NCBI GenBank assembly: GCA_041666915.1 | Contig: JBAYFZ010000001.1 | Location: forward strand, 286,335-350,334 | Origin: Minisyncoccota bacterium | Lineage (GTDB): Bacteria > Patescibacteriota > Minisyncoccia > Phycocordibacterales > PALSA-1337 | Direction of reading: 5' to 3' | DNA length: 64,000 nucleotides | Part shown: in pieces, positions 1,954-53,275 of the stretch | Layout: every line of letters starts with the position of its first letter | Numbering within the stretch: position 1 is the stretch's first letter | Made by a program: the position numbers and the translations under genes | Notes under the pieces: model-generated | What the model was told of the DNA's origin: nothing | What the model saw: the letters and a program-made list of their open reading frames with translations, nothing else | Database searches by the model: none

Positions 1954-2541
1954 CTAGCCGATAAGCACCTCAAAATCTTTCTTGAGCTTACCCAGATTAT
2001 TCGGGTTATAAACAGCAACGCAAGGATGATACAACACCACCATATCTATATCGCCATAACTCGCTTTTGCTTTATAAGACTTCCCATGAGCTTTGCCTAT
2101 CGGTTCCAATTGTGATCCTAAACCAAACTTCTCCATAACATAGCCCATAGCATAACGACCGAGTGCAACTACCACTCTTGGTTGAATGATCTCTATTTGC
2201 TTATCCAAAAATGGTCCGTAAATCTCTATTTCCTTTGGCGTTGGATCACGGTTTTCTGGAGGACGATCTTTGACTATATTAGTTATATAAATAGACTCAC
2301 GCTTAATTTTTACATGTTCCAAAAGCTTATCCAAGACTTTTCCCGCTGCTCCACAAAAAGGTTTACCTGTCTTGGCTTCATTCCTACCCGGAGCTTCTCC
2401 TATAAAAACTATTTCAGCATCATGACTTCCCTCACCTATTACAGGAAAAAAACCGTTGGTTGTACGGTATTCGTAAAGAGGAGATTCTTTGAGGTTAAGA
2501 ATTTTTTCTTCAATTTCTTTCATTCGTCCTTTCTTAGTCAT
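1954..2541 (-). CDS. uracil-DNA glycosylase, family 4 (phage SPO1 Pol-associated type)
   Basis: 195 aa; GEAPGRNEAKTGKPFCGAAG motif and C-terminal HPCVAVYNP typical of family-4 UDG. Confidence 0.8.
   Translation of the reverse strand: MTKKGRMKEIEEKILNLKESPLYEYRTTNGFFPVIGEGSHDAEIVFIGEAPGRNEAKTGKPFCGAAGKVLDKLLEHVKIKRESIYITNIVKDRPPENRDPTPKEIEIYGPFLDKQIEIIQPRVVVALGRYAMGYVMEKFGLGSQLEPIGKAHGKSYKAKASYGDIDMVVLYHPCVAVYNPNNLGKLKKDFEVLIG
1960..2048. repeat. ~89-bp direct repeat copy 2 (inside the UDG 3' coding region)
   Basis: identical to 78-166 apart from one base. Confidence 0.9.
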
Positions 2542-3484: not shown

Positions 3485-3513
3485 GAAAAAGGAAGCGGAA
3501 GCATCTTGTTGTT

Positions 3514-3614
3514 GCGTCATTCCCGCGAAGGCGGGAATCCAGGATTATTACGAACCATAAACTAGTAAATCGAGTGGTAACACACTGGATTCCCGCCTTC
3601 GCGGGAATGACGCA
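3514..3614. repeat. ~100-bp palindromic intergenic element (copy 1) with ~28-bp terminal inverted repeats GCGTCATTCCCGCGAAGGCGGGAATCCAGG; the core is ATTCCC-N8-GGGAAT
   Basis: inverted repeat read directly; second copy at 53276-53374. Confidence 0.8.
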
Positions 3615-8456: not shown

Positions 8457-11450
8457 TTAGGCAACAACTATGTTTACGAGCTTATTTGGGACTACAATAA
8501 CTTTACGAATCTCCTTCCCTTCCAGCCACTTCTTAACTTCTGGAACTTCTTTGGCTAGTCTTTCTATATCTTCTTTACTTGTATCGGTCGGAGCTGTGAA
8601 TGAACCGCGAATCTTCCCACTAACCTGAACCATGATAGTAACCTCATTTTCCACCACCTTTTTGGGGTCATATACGGGCCATGGTGAGACGTGTATTGAT
8701 TTCTTGTTACCAAGTAAGGACCATAGTTCTTCAGTAAAATGTGGAGCAAATGGTGCGAGCAACTGGAGTATAGTTTCGTACTGTTTGCGACTAATAGAAA
8801 CAGATTTTTCCAATTCGTTTATGGCGATCATAAGAGCACTCACAGCTGTATTGAAACGCATTGCTTCAATATCGTCAGTGATCTTCTTTATAGTTTTATG
8901 GATAATCGCATCCACGTCTGCGCACTCTTTGGGCTGTGCCAGTTTCCCCTTCGTATCAACCTTTTCTCGAAGTTTCCAAACACGTTCAATGAATCTCCTA
9001 GTACCAACTATACTAGATGTACTCCAAGCAATCTGTTGATCAAAAGGACCCATAAACATCTCATAAAGTCTGAGGGAATCGGCTCCGTAATTTCCAACTA
9101 TTTCATCAGGATTGATAACATTTCCAAAACGTTTGGACATTTTTCTACCATCTTCCCCCATGATAAGACCGACATGTTGAAGTTTCAAAAATGGTTCTAT
9201 ATTGGAAACCACGCCGATATCATACAAAAATTTATGCCAAAAGCGAGCATAAATAAGATGTCGAGTAGCATGTTCAGCTCCACCTACATACACATCAACT
9301 GGTGACCAATACTTTTCCTTTTTTGGGTCAACGAGAACTTTGTTATTTTCTGGATCTTCATATCTCAAATAATACCAAGAGGAACCCGCCCATTGTGGCA
9401 TAGTATTGGTCTCTCTTTTGGCTGAACCTTTGCAGACTGGACACTTTACATTTACCCATTTTGAAATAGTAGCGAGTGGAGACTCTCCTGTTCCTGTAGG
9501 TTCATAAGATTTGACTCTTGGCAAAATGACAGGAAGATCTTTTTCTGGTACAGGAACAATGCCTTTTCCTTCAGGATTTATAAGAGCACAATTTTCGCAG
9601 CGAATGACTGGTATTGGTTCACCCCAATAACGTTGGCGAGAGAATACCCAATCTCGTAATTTGAATTTTGTAACCCACTGTCCACCAACCGATTCTGTTA
9701 TTTCTTTCTTAACTGATCCGGAAGATTTACCGTCAAATTTGCCGGAATTGATAAGTTTTCCATCTCCAGTAAAACAATTGGAGTTGGAGATATAAGCATT
9801 CCACATCAATTCAAAAGCAGAAAGATTCAACCAAGTCTTCATATCACTTCTTTTTATCCAAACTGTTTTATGGTTGACAACTTCTTCTTCTTTTACTATT
9901 GATTTTTCCTCATCCAATAATCTAAAAAGTACGCCTTGCCCAAAAGCATACCTATTAACATCCTTATGAGCAGCAAAGAAATGATTATGTTGTTCCATAC
10001 CTAAATCTTTTACATACTCAATATGAATGTATCCTGTTTCTTCTTTTATTTCACGAGCAGCAGCATCTTTATATGATTCACCATCATCAACTCCTCCAAT
10101 TATCCCCGAATGCCAATTAAACTTCTCCCAATCCAAACACAAAAACCTATCATTTTTCTCATCTAATAAAAGAGCGTAAATCGTTTTTCTCTTAACGGTT
10201 TCTTTATCTGGTCTAACATGATCTTTTCCTTCGCTATTAGTAGCGTAAGGTGCAATAACTTGTTTTATCTGTAACCCATACTTCTTTGCAAAAGCAAAAT
10301 CCCTCTCATCATGTGCTGGTACTGCCATGACAGCTCCTGTACCATATTCAGCCAAAACATAATCCGCTATCCAAACAGGAACCTCTTCATTGTTGACAGG
10401 ATTGACTGCTTTGACACCTTTCAACTCAACACCAGTCTTTTCTTTACCAGCATCCGTACGTTCAATATCAGTCTGTTTCTTGGTTTTATTTATATAATCC
10501 TCTACTTCTTGACGATTCTCAATATTTTTCAAAAATTCTGTCACTAACTTATGCTCTGGTGCCAAAACAACATAAGTCACACCAAATAATGTGTCTGGAC
10601 GAGTTGTATATACGTCTATTGTATCGTCATTTTTTATATTTGATTCTTGATTTTTAATTTTGAACTTTATCTCTGCTCCTTCACTTCTTCCTATCCAATT
10701 TCTCTGTAAGATCTTTATTGATTCCGGCCAATCAAGAAGTGGTATATCAAGATTTTTCTTAGCATCCAAATCATTGAGCAATCTCTCTGCGTAATCAGTA
10801 ATACGTAAAACCCACTGCCTCATAGGCTTCTTCTCCACCAACGTACCACAACGTTCACAGTGACCATCTTCTACATCTTCATTTGCCAAACCAGTTTTAC
10901 AAGAAGGACACCAATTGATAGGTTCAAACGATTCATAAGCCAAACCCTTTTTTAACAATTGCAAAAATATCCACTGAGTCCACTTATAATATTTTGGATC
11001 AGTAGTATTAACTTCACGTGACCAATCGTAATCAAAACCCATTATTTCCAATTGTTTTTTGTACCTAGCTACATTCTTTTTAACAGAATCCGCTGGATTG
11101 GTTTTTGTTTTCAAAGCATAATTCTCTGCCGGTAAACCAAAAGCATCAAATCCCATTGGATGAAGGATAGAATATCCAGCCATTCTCTTGTAACGAGAAA
11201 TGATATCGGTAGCTATATAACCTTTTGGATGACCAACATGGAGACCTTCACCAGATGGATATGGGAACATATCTAGCACATAATATTTCGGTTTCTTATT
11301 ATCTTCTTTAGATCTAAAAACCTTGGAACTCTCCCACTTCTTTTGCCACTTTTTCTCTATCTTAGCAGAATCGTAAACCGAAACTTTCGCAGTCACCTTC
11401 TTTGCAACCTTTACGGCTGTCTTTTTGGTTTTTTGGCTAGTCTTCTTCAT
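8457..11450 (-). CDS. leuS: leucyl-tRNA synthetase with an inserted Nudix-hydrolase-like domain
   Basis: 997 aa; HVGHPKG (HIGH), TTRPDTLFG editing motif, KMSKR, LRDWVFSRQRYWGEPIP; Nudix box GGVDDGESYKDAAAREIKEETGY at aa ~452-474. Confidence 0.95.
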   Translation of the reverse strand: MKKTSQKTKKTAVKVAKKVTAKVSVYDSAKIEKKWQKKWESSKVFRSKEDNKKPKYYVLDMFPYPSGEGLHVGHPKGYIATDIISRYKRMAGYSILHPMGFDAFGLPAENYALKTKTNPADSVKKNVARYKKQLEIMGFDYDWSREVNTTDPKYYKWTQWIFLQLLKKGLAYESFEPINWCPSCKTGLANEDVEDGHCERCGTLVEKKPMRQWVLRITDYAERLLNDLDAKKNLDIPLLDWPESIKILQRNWIGRSEGAEIKFKIKNQESNIKNDDTIDVYTTRPDTLFGVTYVVLAPEHKLVTEFLKNIENRQEVEDYINKTKKQTDIERTDAGKEKTGVELKGVKAVNPVNNEEVPVWIADYVLAEYGTGAVMAVPAHDERDFAFAKKYGLQIKQVIAPYATNSEGKDHVRPDKETVKRKTIYALLLDEKNDRFLCLDWEKFNWHSGIIGGVDDGESYKDAAAREIKEETGYIHIEYVKDLGMEQHNHFFAAHKDVNRYAFGQGVLFRLLDEEKSIVKEEEVVNHKTVWIKRSDMKTWLNLSAFELMWNAYISNSNCFTGDGKLINSGKFDGKSSGSVKKEITESVGGQWVTKFKLRDWVFSRQRYWGEPIPVIRCENCALINPEGKGIVPVPEKDLPVILPRVKSYEPTGTGESPLATISKWVNVKCPVCKGSAKRETNTMPQWAGSSWYYLRYEDPENNKVLVDPKKEKYWSPVDVYVGGAEHATRHLIYARFWHKFLYDIGVVSNIEPFLKLQHVGLIMGEDGRKMSKRFGNVINPDEIVGNYGADSLRLYEMFMGPFDQQIAWSTSSIVGTRRFIERVWKLREKVDTKGKLAQPKECADVDAIIHKTIKKITDDIEAMRFNTAVSALMIAINELEKSVSISRKQYETILQLLAPFAPHFTEELWSLLGNKKSIHVSPWPVYDPKKVVENEVTIMVQVSGKIRGSFTAPTDTSKEDIERLAKEVPEVKKWLEGKEIRKVIVVPNKLVNIVVA
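9816..10193 (-). other. Nudix (MutT-like) domain inserted in the CP1/editing region of LeuRS
   Basis: perfect Nudix box G-x5-E-x7-REUxEExGU plus flanking beta-strand pattern. Confidence 0.75.
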
Positions 11451-11458
11451 ATCCGAGA

Positions 11459-11487
11459 ATCATAGCTCAAAATGAAGAATGTTTCAA
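11459..11487 (-). promoter_or_regulatory. sigma70-like promoter of leuS: TTGAAA-17 nt-TATGAT, 8 nt before the ATG (near-leaderless)
   Basis: hexamers and spacing read directly; the whole 58-bp block (11449-11506) is duplicated at 12527-12584. Confidence 0.4.
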
Positions 11488-11514
11488 AAGGAAAATGTGA
11501 TTTATTTTTGTGGT

Positions 11515-12537
11515 TCAATTATTAGCCCCAATTATCTTTTTCACTTCTCTATCAAAATCAGATTCAATATTTTGGTGCTTATTAAATTCCCTGTATTCAA
11601 AAATTGCCTTTGAATCAGCATCGGCTTTAGAAACACGTCCTTTTCCATCAAGGATCTTATACTCATTAAAAGAAAGAAACTTATCTACGCTTTCAGCAAA
11701 TTTTTTCATCGTAAATGTATTGCTTCTTTCAATCAAACCTTCAATATAATCAAAAAAACCTACAACCGTTCGTTCTAACTTCTTAATTTCGTTTTCTTCT
11801 AAATAATTTTTTGCAACGATAACATCAGATTGTAAGATTCTACCTACTGGTGATTTCTTCCACGTCAAAAGACCCATATGTGGTTTTTTAGAGTCTACTT
11901 TATTATAAATTATCTCTGGAGCAGTTTTACCAGTAATTGCAAAGTGAAATTTATTCTGCACCATTGCATAAAACTCATGACTGATACTGGAATCTTTATC
12001 GTAATCAACACTACATTCAGCAAAAATATCTGTTATTTGTTGGTAGATACGACGCTCACTCGCCCTAATTGAGCGAACGCGTTCAAGTAGTTCTTGAAAA
12101 TAGTCTGCATTAAATAACTTTCTACCCTGTTTCAAACGCTCATCATCAAGCACAAACCCTTTAATAATAAATTCACGAAGCACCTGTGTTGCCCAGATAC
12201 GAAAATGTGTAGCTCTTTTAGAATTTACTCTATACCCTACTGCAATAATCGCATCTAAATTGTAATAGGTTAGACTACGCTCAATATCTCTCCCTCCTTC
12301 ATTTTGAACTTGTAAGAAATCCTTACAAGTTGAATCCTTCACTAATTCACCAATTTCATAAACATTCTTCAAATGAAGCGTGATATTTTGTGGTGTAGTA
12401 TCAAAAAGCTCAGCTATCAACTTCTGGGTTAGCCAAATCATTTCTCCTTCTATACGGACTTCGACTTTAGGATCACCATTTTCTGTTGAAAAAATGAGAA
12501 ACTGAGCAGTAGTTTGTAGAAAATTAGTCTTCTTCAT
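11515..12537 (-). CDS. RhuM-family virulence/DNA-binding protein
   Basis: 340 aa; YYNLDAIIAVGYRVNSKRATHFRIWATQVLREF is characteristic of the RhuM family. Confidence 0.8.
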   Translation of the reverse strand: MKKTNFLQTTAQFLIFSTENGDPKVEVRIEGEMIWLTQKLIAELFDTTPQNITLHLKNVYEIGELVKDSTCKDFLQVQNEGGRDIERSLTYYNLDAIIAVGYRVNSKRATHFRIWATQVLREFIIKGFVLDDERLKQGRKLFNADYFQELLERVRSIRASERRIYQQITDIFAECSVDYDKDSSISHEFYAMVQNKFHFAITGKTAPEIIYNKVDSKKPHMGLLTWKKSPVGRILQSDVIVAKNYLEENEIKKLERTVVGFFDYIEGLIERSNTFTMKKFAESVDKFLSFNEYKILDGKGRVSKADADSKAIFEYREFNKHQNIESDFDREVKKIIGANN

Positions 12538-12545
12538 ATCCGAGA

Positions 12546-12574
12546 ATCATAGCTCAAAATGAAGAATGTTTCAA
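12546..12574 (-). promoter_or_regulatory. duplicated copy of the leuS promoter, driving rhuM
   Basis: 58-bp identity (12527-12584 vs 11449-11506) including the first four codons ATGAAGAAGACT. Confidence 0.4.
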
Positions 12575-12621
12575 AAGGAAAACCCCACTGTTCGCTTTCG
12601 CTACTAAGTGGGGTTGTGACG

Positions 12622-13155
12622 CTATTTGGGACTAAAGACAAAATTTCTCCAATAGTAATCGTCGAGCGACATCCATTCTCCTTTATGGAATACATGGGTG
12701 ACTTGTTGAAAAGTGAACTTGGGAAGGTCCACTTTGTGAGTGGAGATTCCAAAAGCCTTGATGACTTTGTAACCGAGGTCAACTGCAAATTCACAAAAAT
12801 GCTTTCCTCGTGGAATTTCCAATGTCCAGTTGAGATCTGATTTTTTTATATGATGACGACGAACAGCAGCCTCATAATACATAGATTTCTCAAATTCCTC
12901 AAAAAGTAACTGGAAGATCCTGGAATTAATCCTCTCAAAAATCTCTCGTGGAATCTCTCCGTCCAATGAAATAGAAAGTTCGACCATACGACCCATCTCC
13001 GATTTTATCTGAATAGCCTTGAGCCTAATTACATGACCAGAGACATTATCTACAAGGTCAGTGAGAACTACAAGGTCAGTGCGAAAACCCTCTCTCAAAC
13101 CTTCAGTCAGATTCCAACTAAACAACGTCTGATTCCAACTTCTGATTTTTTTCAT
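12622..13155 (-). CDS. hypothetical protein
   Basis: 177 aa ORF, no recognisable motif. Confidence 0.4.
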   Translation of the reverse strand: MKKIRSWNQTLFSWNLTEGLREGFRTDLVVLTDLVDNVSGHVIRLKAIQIKSEMGRMVELSISLDGEIPREIFERINSRIFQLLFEEFEKSMYYEAAVRRHHIKKSDLNWTLEIPRGKHFCEFAVDLGYKVIKAFGISTHKVDLPKFTFQQVTHVFHKGEWMSLDDYYWRNFVFSPK

Positions 13156-13524
13156 CTATACTTTCCACTACTCATAGGACTCGAGATTTTATACCTCAAG
13201 CGATTGGATAGTCCAATTCTTTTAAAGAGCAGTTTAGTTTTAGGTTACAATGAGATTGTAGGTGGTGTCAAATTACTGATCCAGATTATTTTAATCTCGA
13301 GATCACTGACCTCTTTCCTTTTACCTAGATTTCCATAAACCTTAAACCCTATTCAGATACCCCCTAGGGGTATCAACTACAGATTTGATCCCCCTCCCCC
13401 GGGAGGGGGGTGATTTTGTGATACAATAACTCTAGAGCTCCATTGCAGATCAAGCTTTAAAAGTGTCGCTGTTAAGTCAGTATTCTGGGCCAACGCCTAC
13501 TCTTTCAAAGCTTCCTGTGTACTT

Positions 13525-13560
13525 ACACCGCCCCGATCTTTCTGGGTGGTGTATTTTTTT
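13525..13560 (+). terminator. candidate rho-independent terminator ACACCGCCC-loop-GGGTGGTGT plus T8
   Basis: stem-loop with one G-U, then an 8-T run; no annotated plus-strand gene upstream. Confidence 0.4.
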
Positions 13561-13562
13561 AT

Positions 13563-13590
13563 CCTAAACTTCGTGACACTACCATCTTCG
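13563..13590. repeat. att-like repeat copy A (tcctaaacttcgtgacactaccatcttc); reverse strand encodes DEDGSVTKFRI
   Basis: similarity to copies B, C, D and to the ychF C-terminus. Confidence 0.55.
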
Positions 13591-13610
13591 TCATATGTTA
13601 TGATACTAGT

Positions 13611-13862
13611 ATGAAATATTTCATATTCAGTATCGTAATTTTGATTAACATTGCGATCCACGCCCTATCTTCTGAAATTTCTGCCATCAGTCCTAATTTG
13701 TGGTTTATAATCCTTGTTCTGTTTTTAATCGGATATACTTACGCAGGGGTTCAATATATTCGACTTAAGAAAAGATACGCTGTCAGTATCATATTTTTTC
13801 TCTTGGCAATCTTTAACATCTTACCAATAATAGGATGGCTGGTTCTACGTTCTAATTTTTAG
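13611..13862 (+). CDS. small two-TM membrane protein (island remnant?)
   Basis: 83 aa, two hydrophobic helices; lies between att-like copies A and B. Confidence 0.3.
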   Translation: MKYFIFSIVILINIAIHALSSEISAISPNLWFIILVLFLIGYTYAGVQYIRLKKRYAVSIIFFLLAIFNILPIIGWLVLRSNF

Positions 13863-13863
13863 A

Positions 13864-13891
13864 TTTTAAACTCTATGACACTACCGTCTCC
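13864..13891. repeat. att-like repeat copy B (ttttaaactctatgacactaccgtctcc); reverse strand encodes GDGSVIEFKI*
   Basis: read directly. Confidence 0.6.
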
Positions 13892-14183
13892 ATAAAGTTG
13901 AAACCCCACCTCTGCTTTCGCTAGATGGTGGGGTTTTCCGTGTCGTTTTCGACCTACTCAGTGCTGTGTGCAATTTTTGCGCACGCAAGTGCTCCGAGAT
14001 AAGTGAACGCAACAAGGATGATTGTAAACCAGATAAACCCAGGCAAATCCGCCATTGTGGAGGACGGAACACCTTGATTCATCAGATGAACATGTATTGC
14101 TATAGGTCCAATCATAAGAACTCCTGGTTAAGGTTGAACTATATGGCACATTACCGTCTAATTTACGCTCTGTCCAGTTTCTT

Positions 14184-14216
14184 ATATCCTAAACTCTATG
14201 ACAGTACCATCTTCTC
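14184..14216. repeat. att-like repeat copy C (tatatcctaaactctatgacagtaccatcttct), candidate attL; reverse strand encodes EDGTVIEFRI*
   Basis: about 28/33 identical to copy D at 51842-51874. Confidence 0.65.
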
Positions 14217-14563
14217 AACACGAGGGCTATATTGTTAAAATAGCCCTATAAATCGGCGTAAACGCCAGTTTGCTCGTCTATTAAGCCCACAAATGCCCTT
14301 TTACGGCCTTAGTAGGCGAGCAAGCCTTTTTTGTTAAATTTTCAATTTGCTTACAACAAGGATTATACCAAGCGGTTGTTACATAGCAAGCTCCTTTGGC
14401 TTGTGTTTTCCCCACCTCACTTTTGCAGCCAAACGACCAATAGTCTGGTAGTGTTTTTTACCATACTTTTTCTTGGTCTTCTGACCGCCCTTTTTACCGA
14501 GCGCTTGTGCTGCCTTGTTCTTCACCAGGTAATTATACCAAGTGCTTCTTATTTCACAAAGGC

Positions 14564-15517
14564 CTATTTTCCTCTAAATTTACGATATCTTTGTTCAGCC
14601 TGTTTTCCATACATCATTGTGTAAACCATTGAGCTCTCAATACAGGAGTGACCGAGAATATTTGTGACGTCAGAGTTCGATCCTCCCTTTTCTATAATAT
14701 TTCTACCCATGTAATGTCTCATTGAGTGAGCATTCATATTCTTTTCAAGACCTGCTTTATTGGAATAGCCTCGAAGCATTTCACAAACACCGCTTTGTTT
14801 GAATCTGTATCCCCTAGTTTTGTTTGCACCAGAGTTATGGATTGATATAAATAATGCATTAGGATCACGCAGGACATTTCCACGCTTGAATCTTTCTCGT
14901 CTTTCAATCCATTTCTGAATCGCCTTGCTGGTTTCTTCAGTCCAGAAAATTTCTCGTAATGGTCTACGAGTTTTTGCCTTTTCAGTTTTAATAAGTGCTT
15001 TGTTGTTTACAAGATCCAAGTCATCCATATCAAGTGCCATAATTTCTCCGTTTCTAGCACCGGTATCCCAGAGCAATCTCACAATTGCTTCGTTTCTTAC
15101 ATTTCTAGGATCAGTATTCTGAGGAATGACACTGAGCAATTTTTTGTACTCCTCCTGAGTCGCAACTCGAGGTATCTTGTATTCCTTCTGAGGAATAGGT
15201 ATCAAGTTTTCGTTGAGGACCCTCCAACCTCTGAGGTTACAGAATTCGAAGAATTTCTTGTATGCCATGCATTTTGAAACGAAGCTATTATGCGACCATC
15301 CGATCTCTTTCATTAAATTCAAATATTCCATCATGTTATTTAACGTGATGTCTTCAATCTGTGGGTTACGCAAAAATAGGCAAAAAAGACGAAGGTCTTT
15401 GTCATTGCCTCTGGTAGTGGTACCGTTTATCTTAAACGTGCGCCAATTTGTAAATTCATCTATAGCATCTTTGAATAGCATATTAGTCAACCAAAAAGTC
15501 CACTCGATGCTAGTCAA
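14564..15517 (-). CDS. tyrosine-type site-specific integrase (phage integrase family)
   Basis: 317 aa; LWDTGARNGE (catalytic R), HSMRHYMG (H-x-x-R), GHSCIESSMVYT (catalytic Y). Confidence 0.9.
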   Translation of the reverse strand: MTSIEWTFWLTNMLFKDAIDEFTNWRTFKINGTTTRGNDKDLRLFCLFLRNPQIEDITLNNMMEYLNLMKEIGWSHNSFVSKCMAYKKFFEFCNLRGWRVLNENLIPIPQKEYKIPRVATQEEYKKLLSVIPQNTDPRNVRNEAIVRLLWDTGARNGEIMALDMDDLDLVNNKALIKTEKAKTRRPLREIFWTEETSKAIQKWIERRERFKRGNVLRDPNALFISIHNSGANKTRGYRFKQSGVCEMLRGYSNKAGLEKNMNAHSMRHYMGRNIIEKGGSNSDVTNILGHSCIESSMVYTMMYGKQAEQRYRKFRGK

Positions 15518-16985: not shown

Positions 16986-17303
16986 TTATTTTTGCTCACC
17001 TTTCATTCTGTCGATCATCATTTTGTAGCCTCCACAACCTTCTTTCAGCCAACGATTAATTTTTGTGATCGTTACTGGAGACTCACCTGATTCTTCTTGT
17101 ATTTGAGAAAATGGAACACCTGCATCTAGTTTCTTTGCAACCTCCCAACGCATAGCAAATTCACGAAGATCTCTTTCACTCATAAGATCTCTGAAAAAAG
17201 CCTTGAGCTCGTCTTCATTCTTGAGCGACAAAAACACCTTGAGCAAGTCTGGAGACTTTTGCTCTAACTCAGACCATATTCCATTTTTTTCTTCATCTGT
17301 CAT
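16986..17303 (-). CDS. TrpR-like DNA-binding protein, YerC/YecD family
   Basis: 105 aa; LREFAMRWEVAKKLDAGVPFSQIQEESGESPVTITKINRWLK matches the YerC/YecD TrpR-like pattern. Confidence 0.6.
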   Translation of the reverse strand: MTDEEKNGIWSELEQKSPDLLKVFLSLKNEDELKAFFRDLMSERDLREFAMRWEVAKKLDAGVPFSQIQEESGESPVTITKINRWLKEGCGGYKMMIDRMKGEQK

Positions 17304-17387
17304 ATTTTTTACTATTATACCATAAAAAAGAGCGGTAACCTTGTTTCCAAAGTTACCGCCCGTGTGTCCATTCTATGGACCAAGGAA

Positions 17388-17705
17388 CTAATTACCGCGA
17401 ATCTTTGCGATCGCGAGGATCGTATCGCCGGATTCGACGATGTCATCGACACTGGCTTCCTGGCCGTTGCGTTGAATCTCGCAACGTTCCAAGTTTTTGA
17501 TGCCGATGACTGCGAAGAGTGCGCCAATCGTGATTTTCTTCGTGAGCGGGACCTCCTGGATTTCTCCAGGGATCTTGCCCACGCTCGCAATGGCGTCCTT
17601 CTGGATGACTGTGCAATCGGGGAGATTTGTCGTCTCGGGCCGATCCAACACTTCCACATGCGGCCGTTCAGCAGTCGCCGCCAACTGATTCATTCTGTTT
17701 TTCAC
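17388..17705 (-). CDS. ubiquitin-like beta-grasp protein (ThiS/MoaD-like) ending ..AKIRGN
   Basis: 105 aa; C-terminal IQRNGQEASVDDIVESGDTILAIAKIRG fits the ThiS/MoaD beta-grasp pattern; lies immediately downstream of the E1-like gene. Confidence 0.5.
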   Translation of the reverse strand: MKNRMNQLAATAERPHVEVLDRPETTNLPDCTVIQKDAIASVGKIPGEIQEVPLTKKITIGALFAVIGIKNLERCEIQRNGQEASVDDIVESGDTILAIAKIRGN

Positions 17706-17732
17706 TGTATTTTCCTTTCAAGGTTCAGAGGT

Positions 17733-18419
17733 TTAGTAGTTCTTGCTGAGAACGATCAGCGGCGAGAGCGAAACGATCGCCTCGTTCGCGAACTTTTTGT
17801 TATTCGCAAAGTTGATCATTGTGAACACCGCCATGCCAGCGAGAGTTGCCACTGTCGGAGCGATTGCTCGCCTCGTGCAGGGGCTTTCTTCCGCCTCAGC
17901 ATCAGAATACAACGTTTTTTCATACGCCGCAATCTGATTTGGCATTGCTGGTTTGATCGCATAAATGCGACCGCCTTCGGCTTCCATCCGTGTCTCAATC
18001 ATCAAGTCAACCTTGAGCTGATAGCGGACAGACGATTCCCAGATCGTCTTGCGGCTCTCCATTGTGTCGGTGAGCACGAAAACGATTCCTTTCAGCGATC
18101 CCTTTGTAAACTTCTTGGAGACCGCTTTGATCTTGATGCCGGTGCCGGCTTCGACCGCCTTAGCCAGCGCGTCGACCTTCTTTTTTCCGACATCCGCAAG
18201 TCCGAAGACCTGATTTGGCAGATTGTGATTCTCCACCTCATCGAAGTCATAGACCGTGATGTCTTTGCACCCCATCTTGGCCAAGAGCCAGACGATGTAG
18301 GAGCCGGTTGCACCGACGCCGATCACCGTGATTGGTTTCTTGAAGTTTGACGGGGCGAAGATGTCGAGCTGTCGCCAGTAGTCAGGTTCGCTTGTCGGCT
18401 TATTTTTTGCGGCCGCCAT
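17733..18419 (-). CDS. ThiF/MoeB/E1-like adenylyltransferase (Ubl-activating enzyme-like)
   Basis: 228 aa; Rossmann ITVIGVGATGSYIVWLLAKMG...DFDEVENHNLPNQ typical of E1-like enzymes. Confidence 0.85.
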   Translation of the reverse strand: MAAAKNKPTSEPDYWRQLDIFAPSNFKKPITVIGVGATGSYIVWLLAKMGCKDITVYDFDEVENHNLPNQVFGLADVGKKKVDALAKAVEAGTGIKIKAVSKKFTKGSLKGIVFVLTDTMESRKTIWESSVRYQLKVDLMIETRMEAEGGRIYAIKPAMPNQIAAYEKTLYSDAEAEESPCTRRAIAPTVATLAGMAVFTMINFANNKKFANEAIVSLSPLIVLSKNY

Positions 18420-19260
18420 ATCCCCCTCCTTTCGAATGGAATGAACCGTTCTTGACCTTGGCCTTGATCTCGTCGGCGATCGTCTTGCGACGGGTATCGT
18501 CTCCGAGGTGCATAAGCCAGGGGCAGTCGGTGATCTTCACCTTCTGCGTATAGTCGAAGAAATCGAAGACGCACTTGCCTCCTCGAGTGAAGATGCCGCG
18601 AATGAAGAACGGATTATGAGCGAAGAGCTCCATCTGTTCATCGTCCTGGCCCGACGGCTCGGTCATGTCTCCCGGGTGCAGATGCCCCCAGAAAAGCATG
18701 GAGTTGAGGACCGACTTGTTCGCGGGGTCCTGCTTCAGCATGTCCGTGTAGAACTTGCCGATGCTCCCCTGATCGAATTCGCAGTGCGCTCCGCTCACCT
18801 GTTGGTTGAAGAGGAACACTTTGCCGATGAGATACCTGTCGCCGTCCAGTTTTTGAACGGTGCCAAGCCACCCCACCTCGTCATTGCCCGCAGCTTCCAT
18901 GATGTAGTGCGTATCGGTGTACGCCTCGAGAGACAGAAGAATGGTCGGGATTTGCATCTCGGTCATCACTTCGATCTTCGCTTCCGCCTCATGCGGAACC
19001 AACGGCTTTATTGCTTCTTCGGCAAAGCCTGGACCGGTGTAGATGTCAGACTGATTTTTCACGTTTTGCTCCTTTCTTGGTTTGTTGAAGTTCGCACTCT
19101 CGGACTCCGAAGCCGCCGTTCCCTTCCAGGAACTGGATGACGTACTCCGGTTCTCCCTGTGCCCATTCTTCGGGAGGTTTGAGGCGGGTGATACGACAGC
19201 GTTTACCGTCGTTGCCGGTATACCCCGATGTGCCGCGATTCGTGTAAACACAAACCACAC
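18400..19260 (-). CDS. JAB/MPN (JAMM) metallopeptidase; true start may be internal
   Basis: 286 aa; E...HLHPGDMTEPSGQDD = E / HxH-x7-S-x2-D JAMM motif; 20-nt overlap with the E1 gene. Confidence 0.75.
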   Translation of the reverse strand: MWFVFTRIAAHRGIPATTVNAVVSPASNLPKNGHRENRSTSSSSWKGTAASESESANFNKPRKEQNVKNQSDIYTGPGFAEEAIKPLVPHEAEAKIEVMTEMQIPTILLSLEAYTDTHYIMEAAGNDEVGWLGTVQKLDGDRYLIGKVFLFNQQVSGAHCEFDQGSIGKFYTDMLKQDPANKSVLNSMLFWGHLHPGDMTEPSGQDDEQMELFAHNPFFIRGIFTRGGKCVFDFFDYTQKVKITDCPWLMHLGDDTRRKTIADEIKAKVKNGSFHSKGGGYGGRKK

Positions 19261-19271
19261 CCATCTGGTAT

Positions 19272-20177
19272 TTATGATTCGGCGTTTTCATTCCGCTTAC
19301 CTCCCTTCTTCTTTTTGGCAACTGGCCAGTTGAATATTTCCGAATACGGACGATACTGATCTGAGCACTCATAGCTCTTGAGGTACTGGATGCATACCGA
19401 TACAGCTGCAGCGTATTTGTGCTCCGCAATCATGTGAGGCAGAACCTCTTGGATATTGCCGAGACAAGGCACGCCGTACGCTTCAATATGTGGATGGTGA
19501 TAGCCATCCGGGGTGCGAGTAAGATTCATCATTCTCACCGCCCCATCCTTGCCGACAGAATCGATCGCGATCTTGAACCGGCCAATGTCATAATCAACCT
19601 GTCGGTAGTTTATGAAAATGGGACCGGTATAAGCCACGATTTTTTTGCCGACAACCTCTAGTCGCTCGATGTCTGGATGCTTCATCAGTTGCTCAAATTC
19701 GTCACCGAACCGAGCAAGTGAAGCTTCATCAGTCCCAGCAACAACTTGTAGCTGTTGCTGTTTTTCTTCCAAGCGACGAAGGAAACCTACTAGCTGTTCT
19801 TGGCATTTCTCAATACCTGCACGCAACTTCGTAGTCTCCTGCTTCAGCTCGCGCACACGCTCGGCCTTGCGGTTGTAGCCGCAGAGCTCCATGTATTTGC
19901 GCTTCAGAATGTCTTGTGAGTTCGCTTTGGGTTTCCCTTTGGCGCTCGTATGACCGTTTTGGCTGAAATGTCCCAGATAGACGCCTTGGTAATCCGTTCG
20001 AACTTTCGTGACTTGGCTTTTGGCCACGCCGAGAATCTCGCAGAGTTCACCAAGGTCTTCCATTTGAACACCGACACATGCGTCACCGTTGATACGGAGA
20101 CGAGTGGTCTTGAGTCCAGCGAGACTTTCGCCTCGTAGACTCCGTTGCGGGAACGCAACAATGGTTCCAGTCTTCAT
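19272..20177 (-). CDS. E2 (UBC)-like ubiquitin-conjugating enzyme with N-terminal HTH/coiled-coil extension
   Basis: 301 aa; HHPHIEAYGVPCLGNI resembles the E2 HPN-x-G-x-C-L active-site motif, preceded by a beta-rich segment. Confidence 0.55.
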   Translation of the reverse strand: MKTGTIVAFPQRSLRGESLAGLKTTRLRINGDACVGVQMEDLGELCEILGVAKSQVTKVRTDYQGVYLGHFSQNGHTSAKGKPKANSQDILKRKYMELCGYNRKAERVRELKQETTKLRAGIEKCQEQLVGFLRRLEEKQQQLQVVAGTDEASLARFGDEFEQLMKHPDIERLEVVGKKIVAYTGPIFINYRQVDYDIGRFKIAIDSVGKDGAVRMMNLTRTPDGYHHPHIEAYGVPCLGNIQEVLPHMIAEHKYAAAVSVCIQYLKSYECSDQYRPYSEIFNWPVAKKKKGGKRNENAES

Positions 20178-33950: not shown

Positions 33951-34724
33951 TTAATGGATAATGCTTGTGATCCTTCCCTCGACATCTCTAATTGACCATT
34001 TCTTCACTCCGTCATAGATGCTTCGAAGTAGTTGATTGTCGTCATACTCGAACACGAAGGTCTTTCCGTTCACGTTGTCGTGAAGAGACCTCACGCTGCC
34101 ATCTGCATTTATCGCAACATCGACATACTCAAGTCCCGCTTGAATACCAGAAAGAGCTGCAGCCATGAGCTGAGAAAGTGTTACGGGCTGTGATGCACTC
34201 ACCGCATTTGGAACATTTGGTGAATTGATAAAATTATTGTTGCCTGAAAAAGTATTATTGCCGTTTGTCGATGCTTTTCCTGCAAGATTAGTGTCTACAT
34301 ATCCTTTCGAAACGACTTGTTTTGAATCATTAAAAGCAGGGTCTGCATCGTATTTAATTGGCTTTGTGGAATCGAGAGTATCATCACCATTTAGGATATC
34401 AACAATGATTTTGAGGTTCACGAAATCTGTCAGATAGCATTTTGATCCAGCTCTATGCCCGTTTAAGTTTTGGACTCCGGCGGTTTGGACACCTTGTCTC
34501 GAAACACTGAAAATACTAGTCATAGTTGTACCTGAGAGGTCAAACAAGAGATGCTCTTCATCACCAGTTCCTCGGTCGATAATCATGCAATATCTGCCTA
34601 CTGGCAGGTTTACGCCGTTCTTATCTGTGATGCTAGTTAGAGCTCCTGAAGTAGCACCGCTTGCAAGCTTTGTAGCAAGTGATGTTTCGAAGTTTGCGAT
34701 TACTTTTGTGAGTTTGCTCGACAT
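33951..34724 (-). CDS. tail fibre protein candidate
   Basis: 257 aa; ASQPVTLSQLMAAAL motif common in fibre proteins. Confidence 0.45.
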   Translation of the reverse strand: MSSKLTKVIANFETSLATKLASGATSGALTSITDKNGVNLPVGRYCMIIDRGTGDEEHLLFDLSGTTMTSIFSVSRQGVQTAGVQNLNGHRAGSKCYLTDFVNLKIIVDILNGDDTLDSTKPIKYDADPAFNDSKQVVSKGYVDTNLAGKASTNGNNTFSGNNNFINSPNVPNAVSASQPVTLSQLMAAALSGIQAGLEYVDVAINADGSVRSLHDNVNGKTFVFEYDDNQLLRSIYDGVKKWSIRDVEGRITSIIH

Positions 34725-34744
34725 GGTTTAATTATTTACTCTAA

Positions 34745-34770
34745 AAAATGTGAAAAAGTGTGTGCAATCA
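34745..34770 (-). promoter_or_regulatory. conserved 26-nt motif AAAATGTGAAAAAGTGTGTGCAATCA (copy 1), 20 nt upstream of the tail-fibre gene start
   Basis: identical 26-mer also at 39630-39655 and 42910-42935. Confidence 0.5.
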
Positions 34771-39502: not shown

Positions 39503-39629
39503 AATTGTTTACGTTTTTATGCAATGGTTTTCGCCCCATTGATGCTCGATTGAAACGCAGAGCATTAGCGCCGTTACCTTTTTATTAATAAGAGGTTGGC
39601 CCCTCTATGCTTATAAGTGTGTAGCACTA

Positions 39630-39655
39630 AAAATGTGAAAAAGTGTGTGCAATCA
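39630..39655 (-). promoter_or_regulatory. conserved 26-nt motif copy 2, just downstream of a bidirectional terminator and upstream of the scaffold/capsid module
   Basis: identical 26-mer. Confidence 0.5.
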
Positions 39656-40861: not shown

Positions 40862-42886
40862 CTACGTTGTAAGCGCAGCCGTTTCTGCCGTCCGAGTGGC
40901 AGGATCGCCAAGCGCGACTTTTCCATTTGCTGCAAGATCAGGGTTATCGAGTGCGGCTCCATCGACCATTCCGCGCCCTGTACCACTGATCAAGCCTTCT
41001 TTGGAAACTTGCGACATCACCGAACGTGCAGCATTTCGCTCCACAATCGGAACGATCTGGTCGATGTATGCAAAGACTGCGTTATGCTGTTCGGAAGAGA
41101 GTTCGTGATCAAACTTGTCAGACTTATCGATGAGTCTTTGGAGATACGCTGTGTTGGCATCTTTGTAGAAAGGAACTTTGCGACCTGCAATGAGAAGTTG
41201 GAACACTTCTTCAGCTTTTGAAATAACCTCGGAATAAGAGTAGTCGCTCAAATCAAGCAGACTGTTCACTGTATCGTCTTCGATTCCTGCGATGACCGCT
41301 TGAGTTTTGAATAAGACTTTTTGATTTATATTCTGATCACCTTTGTAAGCGCCGAGAAATGTGAGCTTGTTTTTGCTGTCAGCAAGATTGCTCTGGGCTT
41401 CAGCGATGCTTGATTCAACGAGGATGTCATAGTCGTCTTGAAATGGTTTCAAATCTCTTGCACTCACCATTTCTATCTCAAGACCCATTGAGCCTACGAT
41501 CTTGACAGCCATTTTCTTTTTCAAATCCTGCATCACACCCTCTTTGTGCAAAACAGCGAAGCGATAGTAACCCTCTGCATAGCTTTTATTCAAAAGTCCG
41601 AAACGATCACCTGCTTGCTCAAGATTTCCCTCGTAAATTCCAAGCGTATCTTCATCGCTCGTACCTTTGACACTTGAAGTAACTCCGCTTTCAGATTCCA
41701 CGATTGTCTCGAGCTTGTCATACACCGAGAACGGACCTTGTATCGGAGGAGTCTGTCGTGTCTGAAGCACCTTGTTTACGTCGATATTGCCTTCGATTTC
41801 AATGTAGCCGTCTTTTCGATAGCGTACCTGTGCAAGGTTGCGAACATAATCAACGTTCACGGCAGTCTGAGGTCGGTTGATCTGTTCGGAGTTGTCGAGC
41901 GACTGGTTGATGCTCTTTTCCTGCGCCATGAATATACCTCGGGCATAATCGCAGTAAGATGGTGTCCAAAATTCACGAGGATCTGGGAATGCCGCCCATG
42001 TCCATATCGGATACTTCTCGCTCTTTCGGATATCTTTCCAAGGCTCACATCGAATGCATTCGCCGGATGGAGTTAGTACCAAATAATAACGGTCATCATT
42101 CTCGTCTGTCGTTATCCATGTGTAAAAAACAAATTGATTCTCGTTTTTGAAACGCTCTCGGGGAGCTCCATTGATCTTTCGATTGTCTTTATCAAGATCC
42201 TGTTGAGTCTTTGCTGTGTTATTGCCTCCACCATCAAGCAAACCCTCCACGACTTTCTTGTAGTAGATTCCATCTTTGACACCTTGTGTGAGCTGAGCTC
42301 GTGTGAGTTTCGTATTCCACCATCCAAGGTATGAAGCTTTCTCGACTCCGCTTCCATCTTCTTCTTCAGTACATAAACCGCCAACATCAGGATCAATGAG
42401 AAAGTCTTTCGGATCTATCAAATTCAAAAGGCTTTTATAAATTCCTTTGTCGTTTCTGGTGAGATATAAATAAATGGTGCGACCATAAATCGCCGCATCG
42501 CGCTTTCCCATCAGGTCTTTGAAATTCCAACGTCCGACTTTTGAGTCCTTGTCTCTGATCGCATTCATCAAATCTGCCTTCTTCATGTCTCCAGATTCAC
42601 CTTTGACGTATTTAAATGTGAGAGGGCTGTCTATTTTTGAGAGGATCGTATGCACAAAGCCATGCATCTTGAAAAGTGGAACTTGGGCTCTCGTATCGCC
42701 TGCCTGCTGATAAGTACTACCGCCATATGGAGAAGTCACACTCGGATTGGCACGATCGGGATTCATCATGTCTTCGTTTTTATTCCACGAAGACATTCGT
42801 GCTTTCTTATAGCGATATGAATAATCAATCTCCTTGAGGGATTGTGATGCGAGTGTGTCTCGGGTTTTATAGTGCGCTAACGACAT
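40862..42886 (-). CDS. portal protein candidate
   Basis: 674 aa directly downstream of TerL. Confidence 0.55.
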   Translation of the reverse strand: MSLAHYKTRDTLASQSLKEIDYSYRYKKARMSSWNKNEDMMNPDRANPSVTSPYGGSTYQQAGDTRAQVPLFKMHGFVHTILSKIDSPLTFKYVKGESGDMKKADLMNAIRDKDSKVGRWNFKDLMGKRDAAIYGRTIYLYLTRNDKGIYKSLLNLIDPKDFLIDPDVGGLCTEEEDGSGVEKASYLGWWNTKLTRAQLTQGVKDGIYYKKVVEGLLDGGGNNTAKTQQDLDKDNRKINGAPRERFKNENQFVFYTWITTDENDDRYYLVLTPSGECIRCEPWKDIRKSEKYPIWTWAAFPDPREFWTPSYCDYARGIFMAQEKSINQSLDNSEQINRPQTAVNVDYVRNLAQVRYRKDGYIEIEGNIDVNKVLQTRQTPPIQGPFSVYDKLETIVESESGVTSSVKGTSDEDTLGIYEGNLEQAGDRFGLLNKSYAEGYYRFAVLHKEGVMQDLKKKMAVKIVGSMGLEIEMVSARDLKPFQDDYDILVESSIAEAQSNLADSKNKLTFLGAYKGDQNINQKVLFKTQAVIAGIEDDTVNSLLDLSDYSYSEVISKAEEVFQLLIAGRKVPFYKDANTAYLQRLIDKSDKFDHELSSEQHNAVFAYIDQIVPIVERNAARSVMSQVSKEGLISGTGRGMVDGAALDNPDLAANGKVALGDPATRTAETAALTT

Positions 42887-42909
42887 GATTATTTAAGTGT
42901 AGATACAAA

Positions 42910-42935
42910 AAAATGTGAAAAAGTGTGTGCAATCA
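42910..42935 (-). promoter_or_regulatory. conserved 26-nt motif copy 3, overlapping the TerL stop codon and 23 nt upstream of the portal start
   Basis: identical 26-mer. Confidence 0.5.
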
Positions 42936-51694: not shown

Positions 51695-51841
51695 AATCGT
51701 TTAATTTTGCTAATAAATTTTCGACCTTTTTAGACGAGTTACTGATATGCAAAAAGCACACAGTTTTTCTGTGCGCTTACGTTCGATTTATTTGTTTTTA
51801 GCCTAGTTTTTCCTCACTTTGGCCTTAGAAGATGGTGGTGT

Positions 51842-53248: not shown

Positions 53249-53275
53249 AGTGCAAAATGCAAAGTTTTATTACGT

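Follow-up and report, generated by a model that had tools for sequence, protein, structure and literature searches.

A rhuM gene bracketed by direct repeats of the leuS start region in a Candidatus Paceibacterota genome: a probable insertion with target duplication

Background

The insertion sequences IS1549 and IS1634 are flanked by direct repeats of 8-514 bp that arise by an unexplained mechanism (PMC2266710). In S. pneumoniae, insertion into an essential gene during transformation selects for duplications of 100-900 kb, which leave one intact and one interrupted copy, are reversible, arise only where IS-derived repeats already exist and were obtained by laboratory selection (PMC3784515). 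Integrative islands with att sites at tRNA 3′ ends rely on a dedicated integrase and a fixed att site common to all copies of the element, and the duplicated gene end that flanks the insert keeps the interrupted gene functional. In promoter capture, as known for integron cassettes behind Pc and for genes served by upstream IS promoters, a promoterless accessory gene uses the signals of its insertion site.

The locus described here, a rhuM gene placed directly in front of leuS in a tiny-genome CPR bacterium (Candidatus Paceibacterota), can be compared with each of these systems. As in IS1549 and IS1634, the insert is flanked by locus-specific, target-derived direct repeats, whose length varies widely between loci, but those elements are autonomous, with a DDE transposase and defined ends, whereas here a bare cargo gene with arbitrary breakpoints is found. 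The survival of an essential gene through target duplication is shared with pneumococcal merodiploidy and Campbell-type integration, yet the leuS duplication is natural, is 58 bp long, comprises exactly the expression signals and is fused in frame to the cargo. Integrative islands likewise keep the interrupted gene functional, but the repeats considered here differ from locus to locus, the unit contains no integrase and the cargo is truncated. In promoter capture the resident promoter is shared or hijacked; at leuS it has instead been duplicated, and with it the start codon and four codons, and neither attC nor attI is present; the codons would have to be included because initiation appears to be leaderless.

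Proteins of the RhuM family are encoded within R-M and defence neighbourhoods and have been predicted to be toxins (PMC3710099). A gene with the PDC-S05/RhuM domain reduces the EOP of T7 and T5 about 1000-fold in E. coli and also protects against T4 (bioRxiv 10.1101/2024.09.26.614923). The RhuM protein studied here is a candidate single-gene phage defence or predicted toxin. No mention of target duplications bracketing rhuM genes was found in the literature searched. The leuS locus would offer a concrete solution to two questions, how lone defence genes move without visible mobility machinery and how they are expressed where they land: an insertion that duplicates the start module of its neighbour, so that the newcomer is presumably expressed at once and the essential gene is restored.

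Organization of the rhuM-leuS locus

The window, i.e. the whole 64-kb stretch of DNA that was analyzed, carries the following features at this locus:

12581..12615, minus strand: intrinsic-terminator-like hairpin, AACCCCACU...AGUGGGGUU (-16.9 kcal/mol, z = -2.8)
12525..12582, minus strand: upstream 58-nt copy, heading rhuM; putative -35 box TTGAAA 12574-12569, putative -10 box TATGAT 12551-12546, then an 8-nt spacer, ATG 12537-12535 and AAG AAG ACT A
12537..11515, minus strand: rhuM CDS, 340 aa, MKKTNF... (PF13310, E=4e-106; PADLOC PDC-S05)
11496..12524, minus strand: unique inserted DNA, 1029 nt, from the second base of rhuM codon 5 to the stop codon plus 19 nt of 3′ flank (11514-11496)
11438..11495, minus strand: downstream 58-nt copy, heading leuS; putative -35 box 11487-11482, putative -10 box 11464-11459, ATG 11450-11448
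11450..8457, minus strand: leuS CDS, 997 aa, MKKTSQ..., with a NUDIX domain inserted at residues 421-537

The gene rhuM is bracketed by an exact direct repeat of 58 nt (58/58 identical; 11438-11495 and 12525-12582 in plus-strand coordinates), the copies being spaced 1087 nt start to start. Both copies, seen on the minus strand, have the form TTGAAA-17-TATGAT-8-ATGAAGAAGACTA; written out over the whole length they are TTTTCC-TTTTGAAA(-35 TTGAAA)-17 nt-TATGAT-TCTCGGAT-ATGAAGAAGACT-A. The initial annotation had reported the identical repeat correctly but placed it at 11449-11506 and 12527-12584; its remark that LeuRS (MKKTSQ..) and RhuM (MKKTNF..) begin with the same four codons behind the same promoter is borne out, both lying within the repeat. 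With up to 3 mismatches allowed, the block occurs exactly twice in the window, with no third, att-like copy, and none of 100 dinucleotide-preserving shuffles gave a match.

The duplicated block reaches as far as the first base of rhuM codon 5 and includes codons 1-4 (MKKT); the remainder is RhuM, whereas leuS is intact and has its native first four codons within the downstream copy. In spite of this chimeric start the protein retains the conserved N-terminal and core residues of the family: it matches PF13310 at full length (profile positions 1-249 of 252, E = 4e-106) and the PDC-S05 models over residues 9-336 (E = 3e-149), and in an alignment of 40 sequences near-invariance begins at F13 and L14, past the junction at residue 5, which falls in a variable tail. 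RhuM is the sole Pfam match of the protein, no significant PDB sequence match was obtained, and a Foldseek search with a model of moderate confidence gave no match at E <= 0.001; by these three approaches no similarity to nucleases, transposases or recombinases was detectable.

The only gene in the 1029-nt insert is rhuM, and the insert has no promoter or terminator of its own, no transposase or recombinase gene and no terminal inverted repeats. No structure is predicted between rhuM and the second 58-nt copy (-5.3 kcal/mol, z = 0.14). A tyrosine recombinase gene (PF00589, E = 2e-26) is located 2 kb upstream, at 14564-15517, outside the repeat-bounded unit.

The repeat is not an assembly artefact. 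Its two-copy state is supported by three independent assemblies. The source contig was assembled at k=141 (contig name k141_), a value longer than the repeat; an independent JGI contig (L003) contains both copies and differs from the window by 1 nt in 2026; and a k=31 contig from a third sample (L182), 100% identical to the window, ends exactly 30 nt (k-1) into the block, where a two-copy repeat predicts a break at this k. At k=31, then, the assembly stops at the two-copy block of L182 and passes through the block of the relative L084, described below. With metagenomic data, and with a repeat length that equals k-1 for k=59, a value in the MEGAHIT default k list, one might suspect that collapsed or chimeric strains were misassembled or that both genes happen to be preceded by a widespread promoter or REP-like element. 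Against an error stand the final k, which exceeds the repeat, the identical structure in the JGI assembly and the position at which L182 ends; against a generic element stand the presence of only two copies in 64 kb, the absence of the block from all 80 reference LeuRS loci and the absence of exact 26-mer matches from the metagenome collection scanned. Such an explanation is hardly conceivable, and the generic repeat that the initial annotation had named as its own refutation did not materialize. Dispersed copies of the kind left by a REP, a MITE or a mobile promoter were sought and not found (two in the window, one in L084 and none in the 80 leuS loci).

The duplicated block as a predicted start module

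The putative promoter TTGAAA-17-TATGAT has 10/12 matches. A sigma-70-type leaderless start was taken to require 16-18 nt between the hexamers and about 6-9 nt from the -10 box to ATG; the block has 17 nt and 8 nt, respectively. Shine-Dalgarno (SD) sites are rare in this genome (3/48 genes), and a TANNNT motif ending 5-10 nt before ATG is present in 16 of 53 genes, compared with 3-7 in control bins, so that many operon-leading genes seem to have the -10 box at this distance, in what we infer to be a leaderless arrangement. The scarcity of SD sites and the proximity of the -10 box to ATG therefore predict that the 58-bp block is a complete leaderless expression module.

Composed of a -35 box, a -10 box, ATG and four codons, the block would be self-sufficient for the start of both transcription and translation. 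The upstream copy would drive the chimeric MKKT-RhuM in frame, only the variable N-terminal tail of RhuM being replaced, while the downstream copy would keep leuS intact and expressed. The activity of the block as a promoter, the start without a leader and the expression of RhuM are predictions from sequence; strong constitutive expression of rhuM from the captured signals is plausible. Transcripts from the upstream copy may also read through into leuS, since no terminator lies in between.

Direction of capture and the empty site

The LeuRS orthologues of this lineage nearly all begin with MKK followed by a Lys-rich tail, which makes MKKT native to leuS. The closest RhuM proteins (best homologue at 82% amino-acid identity) begin with MEKDNIPQKNTTAQFLIF, as opposed to MKKTNFLQTTAQFLIF here, and RhuM relatives have a longer, different N-terminus (MEKDNIPQKN...) behind a promoter of their own; the conserved upstream promoter region of the homologues, common to the different contexts L088 and L091, is absent from the present locus. 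With MKK native to LeuRS and a different start in the RhuM relatives, rhuM has therefore probably shed its original 5′ end and taken over the signals of leuS. None of the 80 reference LeuRS loci has rhuM adjacent to leuS, and among 55 rhuM contexts only this one has leuS downstream. The direction of capture, from leuS to rhuM, is thus supported by these comparisons.

The hairpin at 12581..12615 closes the upstream variable region, and its U-tract UUUUCCUUUU extends into the start of the upstream repeat copy; no such hairpin precedes the leuS copy. In L084, a relative without rhuM, a terminator hairpin is followed by a single 58-nt block (57/58 identical) and then by leuS, and removal of one copy together with rhuM (1087 bp) from the window yields exactly this arrangement. 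By sequence comparison the L084 locus is an empty site for the rhuM insertion. It is the sole empty-site sequence, and it comes from a diverged, mosaic relative (~55-95% identity in blocks) rather than from the same species. Homology between the window and L084 begins exactly at the hairpin, beyond which the region is variable between relatives; identity is 95-100% from -77 to +111 around ATG, ~55-65% for the next ~700 nt and ~93% thereafter. The proposal in the initial annotation that rhuM was inserted with duplication of the leuS signals is supported by the MKK start of LeuRS, the N-termini of RhuM proteins, L084 and the 80 leuS loci, the comparison it had suggested with a relative lacking rhuM having revealed the empty site.

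Recurrence of the footprint

A second event was found in the same window, where a 91-nt duplication of the 3′ end of a UDG gene surrounds a carbamoyltransferase gene that is absent in syntenic relatives. The two 91-nt copies differ at 2 positions. The cargo being a different one, the process is not specific to rhuM.

Locus-specific bracketing direct repeats of 20-138 nt were detected in 10 of 55 independent rhuM contexts (6/55 at a stricter cut-off), and bracketing repeats in inverted orientation in 1/55. Ordinary control ORFs, which are mostly core genes and not matched accessory genes, had bracketing repeats in 3/354 cases (p = 2e-7 vs rhuM), and neighbouring ORFs in 0/45 (p = 0.002 vs rhuM). 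Each of the surveyed repeats occurs exactly twice within its locus, and from one rhuM locus to the next both sequence and length change, with no core in common. In L139 (62 nt, 98%), L136 and L115 the downstream gene contributes its initial 3-6 codons to the repeat. No TIRs, shared termini or conserved ends were seen across the 10 rhuM events and the UDG event, and the ends of the inserts are arbitrary with respect to rhuM (-13 to +200 at the 5′ side). An insert with a long target duplication thus appears to be a general footprint, recurrent around rhuM genes in many other bacteria: about one fifth of the independent contexts carry it, several of them with the in-frame design of "borrowed first codons". 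Like the rhuM gene studied here, its close CPR homologues are lone and lie directly upstream of translation genes (leuS, rpsB, gatB-like), not in R-M operons.

Some of the repeats in the survey are short or ambiguous. The blocks of L136 and L160 are found also at rhuM 5′ ends of other loci, and L160 has an equally good inverted match.

Origin of the insertion

We consider it probable that a 5′-truncated, promoterless rhuM was inserted 13 nt into leuS with a target duplication of 58 bp (from about -45 to +13 of ATG) that provides a leaderless module, and that no recombinase was responsible. The route itself, an illegitimate "duplicative" insertion, is favoured and is the least certain part of this reading. 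The two ends of a foreign fragment would have been joined at positions staggered by 58 bp, perhaps through fill-in at a staggered break, interchromatid joining or template switching. The filter would then be selection: an insertion or deletion at this place may be survivable only when the start of the essential gene is regenerated, and the cargo may be kept only when it lands in frame behind working signals. Because the repeats are perfect, the insertion should be precisely reversible by homologous recombination.

A homology-assisted origin, by homology-facilitated illegitimate recombination or Campbell-type integration of a circle, seems unlikely but deserves attention, since Campbell-type integration is the textbook route to an insert between two copies of a homologous segment and CPR bacteria are thought to take up DNA. 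Donor DNA from a relative with rhuM just upstream of the leuS promoter would have been anchored by homology in the 58 bp and the leuS 5′ region; an illegitimate junction of its other end 13 nt into leuS, a point "behind" the anchor, would have duplicated the 58 bp. The locus has clearly recombined between lineages, as the identity blocks of L084 (95-100%, ~55-65%, ~93%) indicate; identity is high around ATG although the N-terminal tail is the least conserved part of LeuRS, and the 2 differences between the 91-nt UDG repeats could reflect divergence of donor and recipient. Yet no such donor was met with among the 55 rhuM contexts or upstream of leuS in the 80 reference loci, the two 58-nt copies are identical to each other while that of the nearest relative differs, and an earlier, unexplained insertion of rhuM at leuS would still be required in the donor.

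Mobility enzymes offer two further routes. In one of them, which we regard as improbable, the 58 bp would be an att core and the 1087-bp unit an integrase-less, CIME-like cassette that carries a replacement for the interrupted gene end, in the manner of tRNA-targeting islands, and was mobilized by a tyrosine recombinase acting in trans, for instance the one encoded at 14564-15517. Elements that integrate at the end of a gene and rebuild it from a long identical att segment are familiar, and the recombinase gene lies in a region variable between relatives. However, it is placed outside the repeat-bounded unit, the 5′-truncated and in-frame-fused rhuM resembles a random breakpoint and not a designed element end, the repeats at the other rhuM loci (20-138 nt) share neither core nor termini, the repeat of the second event, 91 nt from the 3′ end of a gene, is unrelated in sequence, and the 58-bp block has no third, att-like copy. 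Transposition with long target-site duplications of variable length, by IS1549/IS1634 acting in trans or by RhuM itself as the mobilizer, is disfavoured and very improbable. The 8-514 bp range of these elements does cover the 20-138 nt observed, and bracketing repeats are a property of rhuM that its neighbours do not share, but the unit has no transposase, no TIRs and arbitrary insert ends, RhuM lacks detectable similarity to nucleases, transposases and recombinases, and the same footprint surrounds a non-rhuM cargo in this genome.

Extending the recombinase-independent duplicative insertion to the family as a whole is possible but doubtful: RhuM/PDC-S05 cassettes might spread by such a hitherto unrecognised process, with a preference for the first codons or 5′ boundary of a gene and with copying of ~20-140 bp of its start, and the process might be a general mode of acquisition in small, SD-poor, leaderless genomes. 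If so, the cargo would be wired to proven expression signals and the resident, often essential, gene regenerated. Given recurrence, borrowed codons and a second cargo, the footprint is a candidate, open to testing, for a route by which genes are repeatedly gained; such a route may matter most in CPR bacteria with their tightly packed essential genes and leaderless initiation, and a long locus-specific repeat around a single gene is a searchable signature. As pure speculation, the size of the duplication (~-45 to +13) approximates the RNA-polymerase footprint on a promoter, and staggered breaks may fall at the edges of the bound polymerase; in four strong cases the duplications are 53-69 bp long.

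The rhuM and leuS genes share a duplicated putative start module

Two adjacent minus-strand genes of the window are each headed by the same block of putative promoter, ATG and first four codons (positions in plus-strand numbering):

12537..11515, minus strand: rhuM, 340 aa, RhuM family (PF13310, E = 4e-106)
11450..8457, minus strand: leuS, LeuRS, 997 aa
11438-11495 and 12525-12582: the block, an exact 58-nt direct repeat, copies 1087 nt apart

Read on the minus strand, the block consists of TTTTCC TTTTGAAA (with the -35 motif TTGAAA), 17 nt, TATGAT, TCTCGGAT and ATG AAG AAG ACT A. The upstream copy runs into ATTTTCTAC... and the remainder of the RhuM-family protein, the downstream copy into GCCAAAAAACC... 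and the remainder of LeuRS, so both proteins open with MKKT encoded by the block. The initial annotation was thus correct about the common first four codons and about the content of the repeat, which it had placed at 11449-11506 and 12527-12584, that is 11 and 2 nt off. The junction falls within codon 5 of rhuM (AAT), whose first base belongs to the repeat and whose other two come from the insert. A search of the 64 kb that tolerated ≤3 mismatches located the block exactly twice, and 100 dinucleotide-preserving shuffles gave no match; a third, degenerate copy 5′ of the recombinase gene, as in a tandem-island model, is absent at this tolerance. An exact scan of the metagenome collection with a 26-mer of the block (GAGCTATGATTCTCGGATATGAAGAA) gave no match, hence no more occupied, empty or alternative sites there. 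An RNA element (T-box, riboswitch or sRNA) was rejected, as scanning the window at Rfam gathering thresholds returned two tRNA-Ala genes only; ARAGORN gave no match near the rhuM-leuS locus.

The two-copy repeat is not an assembly artefact. The window is part of a 450-kb contig that was assembled at k=141 (ERZ27249449) and carries the NCBI annotation Candidatus Paceibacterota. An independent JGI contig (L003, sample 3300037810) contains both copies, with a single-nucleotide difference from the window over 2026 nt. In a third sample, a Logan contig (L182, SRR6484324) matches window 14131-12553 at 100% identity and ends exactly 30 nt inside the block. Since Logan assemblies presumably use k=31, it stops k-1 bases into the block, as a de Bruijn assembler does where a sequence has two different left contexts.

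Expression signals

An SD-like motif precedes only 3 of the 48 called genes of the window. Of 53 genes, 16 have a TANNNT hexamer whose end lies 5-10 nt 5′ of the ATG, as against 5, 7 and 3 in equal-width control bins further upstream; this position is the presumptive signature of leaderless mRNAs. For the whole window, the near absence of SD motifs and the common -10-like hexamer suggest that initiation in this Paceibacterota genome is mostly leaderless or SD-independent. In a leaderless gene the promoter and ATG would be the entire expression signal, so that 58 bp would suffice, and the in-frame MKKT-RhuM fusion would follow from the need of a captured ORF to join at or after the ATG. Directly 5′ of the upstream block copy lies a terminator-like hairpin (-16.9 kcal/mol, z = -2.8) followed by UUUUCCUUUU. 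Between the rhuM stop and the leuS block copy there are only 19 unstructured nt (-5.3 kcal/mol, z = 0.14), and leuS should therefore also receive read-through transcription.

Origin of the block and direction of capture

Nearly all LeuRS orthologues of the lineage (60-72% identity) open with MKK and a Lys-rich extension (MKKA.., MKKS.., MKKV.., MKKTKKKGKK..), which makes MKKT native to leuS. The closest RhuM proteins (≤82% identity) have the N-terminus MEKDNIPQKNTTAQFLIF or variants of it, as against MKKTNFLQ--TTAQFLIF in the window RhuM, and the first nearly invariant RhuM residues, F13 and L14, lie downstream of the block/insert junction. Close rhuM homologues also possess an upstream region of their own (AACTCTTTATTTTTTCTTGATAGGCATATGCTAGAATG...), common to two loci in different contexts (L088 and L091) and missing in the window.

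An empty site was found on a Logan contig of a diverged relative (L084), in the order unrelated upstream gene, hairpin with compensatory changes, one block copy (57/58) and leuS, whose first 26 codons are the same as in the window. In BLAST, L084 156-245 aligns to the upstream block copy and hairpin, and L084 188-747 to the downstream copy and leuS; removal of one block copy and rhuM (1087 bp) from the window thus gives the L084 arrangement. Because the L084 contig runs unbroken through the block where L182 breaks, only one copy of the block exists in that population. No species-level relatives were found: identity is 68-72% to the closest full-length LeuRS and 65% for the best match in a reference genome, so the diverged L084 is the only empty site. 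Among 80 reference-genome leuS loci none has rhuM adjacent and none has any piece of the block. Together, the N-termini of LeuRS and RhuM, the separate upstream region of rhuM homologues, the single block directly ahead of leuS in the relative lacking rhuM and the 80 leuS loci support the view of the initial annotation that rhuM entered the 5′ end of leuS and that the target was duplicated in the process, and we consider this architecture and the direction of capture, from leuS to rhuM, very probable.

LeuRS residues 421-537 (window 9840-10190) form an inserted NUDIX domain (PF00293, E = 2e-10), found also in most of the closest Paceibacterota LeuRS, many of which are 1100-1550 aa long and additionally have HAD or alpha/beta-hydrolase domains.

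Bracketing repeats around rhuM and other cargo

For a survey of recurrence 90 rhuM loci were fetched and de-replicated to 55 testable contexts, and the zone -500..+45 around the start was compared with the zone -45..+500 around the stop. A bracketing direct repeat was present in 10 of the 55 contexts at score ≥18 and in 6 at ≥25, while the inverted-orientation control gave 1 of 55. Control ORFs of 250-450 aa from leuS loci, mostly core genes and not matched accessory genes, gave 3/354 and 0/354 at the two thresholds (Fisher p = 1.9e-7 and 4.6e-6), and similar-sized neighbour ORFs of the same rhuM loci gave 0/45 (p = 0.002). The repeats of the ten contexts (138, 69, 62, 58, 53, 53, 36, 29, 26 and 24 nt) each have their own sequence, in exactly two copies per locus. 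The window's apparent design is repeated at three loci: in L139 a 62-nt repeat (98% identity) extends from the end of one glycosyltransferase gene into the next, of which it includes the first four codons (ATGGTACTCTCT), in L136 the MEN start of both rhuM and the downstream Fic gene comes from the repeat, and in L115 the first six codons of hsdR are copied 31 nt upstream of rhuM. The blocks of L136 and L160 occur at rhuM 5′ ends of other loci too, which leaves their ownership ambiguous, and in L160 the inverted match is as strong as the direct one.

A second duplication surrounds a different gene in the same window:

170-1873 and 1954-2541, minus strand: carbamoyltransferase / UDG-family insertion locus
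78-168 and 1960-2050: 91-nt repeat, 89/91 identical

This repeat corresponds to the last 30 codons of the UDG-family gene and brackets a single carbamoyltransferase gene (PF02543/PF16861) with 86 nt of that gene's upstream DNA. Copy A ends ...EVLIG*, its final codon and stop being supplied by the insert, and copy B continues ...EVLIKVQHL* into a hairpin; homologues terminate ...EVLKKYV*. In syntenic relatives (L177-L179) UDG is followed directly by peptidase M3 and AlaRS, without the carbamoyltransferase. The insertion process is thus not rhuM-specific in the window genome.

Route of insertion

No recombinase or transposase gene lies inside the repeat-bounded units, and they have neither terminal inverted repeats nor common termini. 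In the rhuM units the end of the upstream repeat varies between 13 nt within the ORF and 200 nt 5′ of the ATG, and the start of the downstream repeat between 10 nt ahead of the stop and 427 nt beyond it. Such arbitrary ends, with the lack of recombinase and shared termini, speak against both a dedicated transposase and a fixed att site. We tentatively propose, with slightly more doubt than confidence, that a foreign fragment was joined illegitimately at two positions with a stagger of tens of base pairs; at the start of an essential gene the duplicating outcome alone would be viable. Insertions into essential genes have been recovered as duplications in pneumococcal transformation, on a far larger scale (PMC3784515).

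A homology-assisted variant of this insertion is possible. Identity between the window and L084 is 95-100% from -77 to +111 of leuS, ~55-65% to +830 and ~93% thereafter, so recombination has occurred at the leuS locus, but no donor with rhuM adjoining leuS is seen: leuS lies downstream in 0/55 rhuM contexts and rhuM is adjacent in 0/80 leuS loci. Action in trans of the tyrosine recombinase encoded at 14564-15517 is disfavoured by the truncated cargo and the diverse repeats. Long target duplications of variable length (8-514 bp) are otherwise known only from IS1549 and IS1634, which have no accepted mechanistic model for them (PMC2266710) and which, unlike the rhuM unit, are autonomous IS elements. 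RhuM was also considered as its own mobilising enzyme: a PDB sequence search gave 0 significant matches and no solved homologue, and its AlphaFold2 model, of moderate confidence only (pLDDT 66.5, pTM 0.38), gave nothing in Foldseek against PDB at E ≤ 0.001, so these searches offer no pointer to a nuclease or recombinase activity. A 1108-bp contig (P0007), examined in case it was a 'cycle' contig of the L084 sample, was discarded, since it derives from another sample and its ends do not overlap.

Across window 8457-12614 leuS is a mosaic of two lineages, in which blocks 93-100% identical to L084 (among them the terminator hairpin, the promoter and the CDS up to nt 111) are interspersed with one of ~55-65%; this indicates that diverged alleles of an essential gene have recombined.

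Target-duplicating insertion and promoter capture are known kinds of event. The papers returned by our literature search offered no description of a duplicated complete leaderless start module, of an in-frame borrowed N-terminus or of recurrence around a defence-gene family.

RhuM as cargo

The window RhuM matches the PADLOC single-gene candidate PDC-S05 (E = 3e-149). RhuM-like domains have been predicted to be toxins in R-M-linked defence loci (PMC3710099), and one PDC-S05/RhuM-domain gene in E. coli lowered plating of T7 and T5 ~1000-fold and of T4 ~10-fold (bioRxiv 10.1101/2024.09.26.614923). Close CPR homologues lie directly upstream of translation genes (rpsB, a gatB-like gene, an L10-like gene), more distant ones within R-M operons. 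At L092-L096, L109 and L180 a lone rhuM stands 14-35 nt 5′ of essential translation genes, in the arrangements RF-1 - rhuM - rpsB - tsf and rhuM followed by a gatB-like MAYKATIGLEIH... ORF; no bracketing repeat is detectable at these loci.

Other features of the window

The variable region 5′ of the leuS terminator hairpin is unrelated to L084 and may be what earlier insertions at this position left behind:

12615-15517: variable region, with a 177-aa ORF without family match and two similar CTTGGTATAAT promoter-like sites
14564-15517: tyrosine recombinase
~13905-13935: second, stronger copy (-22.9 kcal/mol, z = -5.5) of the hairpin family CCCCAC..TAGCGAAAGC..GTGGGG

A family of 34-36-nt motifs (minus strand ...GATGGTAGTGTCATAGAGTTTAGGATA...) has three copies ~300-320 nt apart in this region (13554-13589, 13856-13891, 14179-14214) and a fourth 37 kb off (51838-51871). 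The conserved motif TGATTGCACACACTTTTTCACATTTTT (minus strand; 34727-34770, 39612-39655, 42892-42935), located ~20-25 nt 5′ of the ATG in at least two long genes (33951-34724, 40862-42886), looks like a putative shared operator or promoter element. Paired palindromic repeats with ATTCCCGCGAAGGCGGGAAT (ATTCCC-N8-GGGAAT) occupy two intergenic regions (3511-3614, 53274-53375), each pair flanking ~70 nt of partly similar sequence; they are reminiscent of Neisseria dRS3-type repeats. In base composition 17200-19400 is a foreign segment, with a GC content of 0.50-0.56 where the 14 kb around it have 0.32-0.42.
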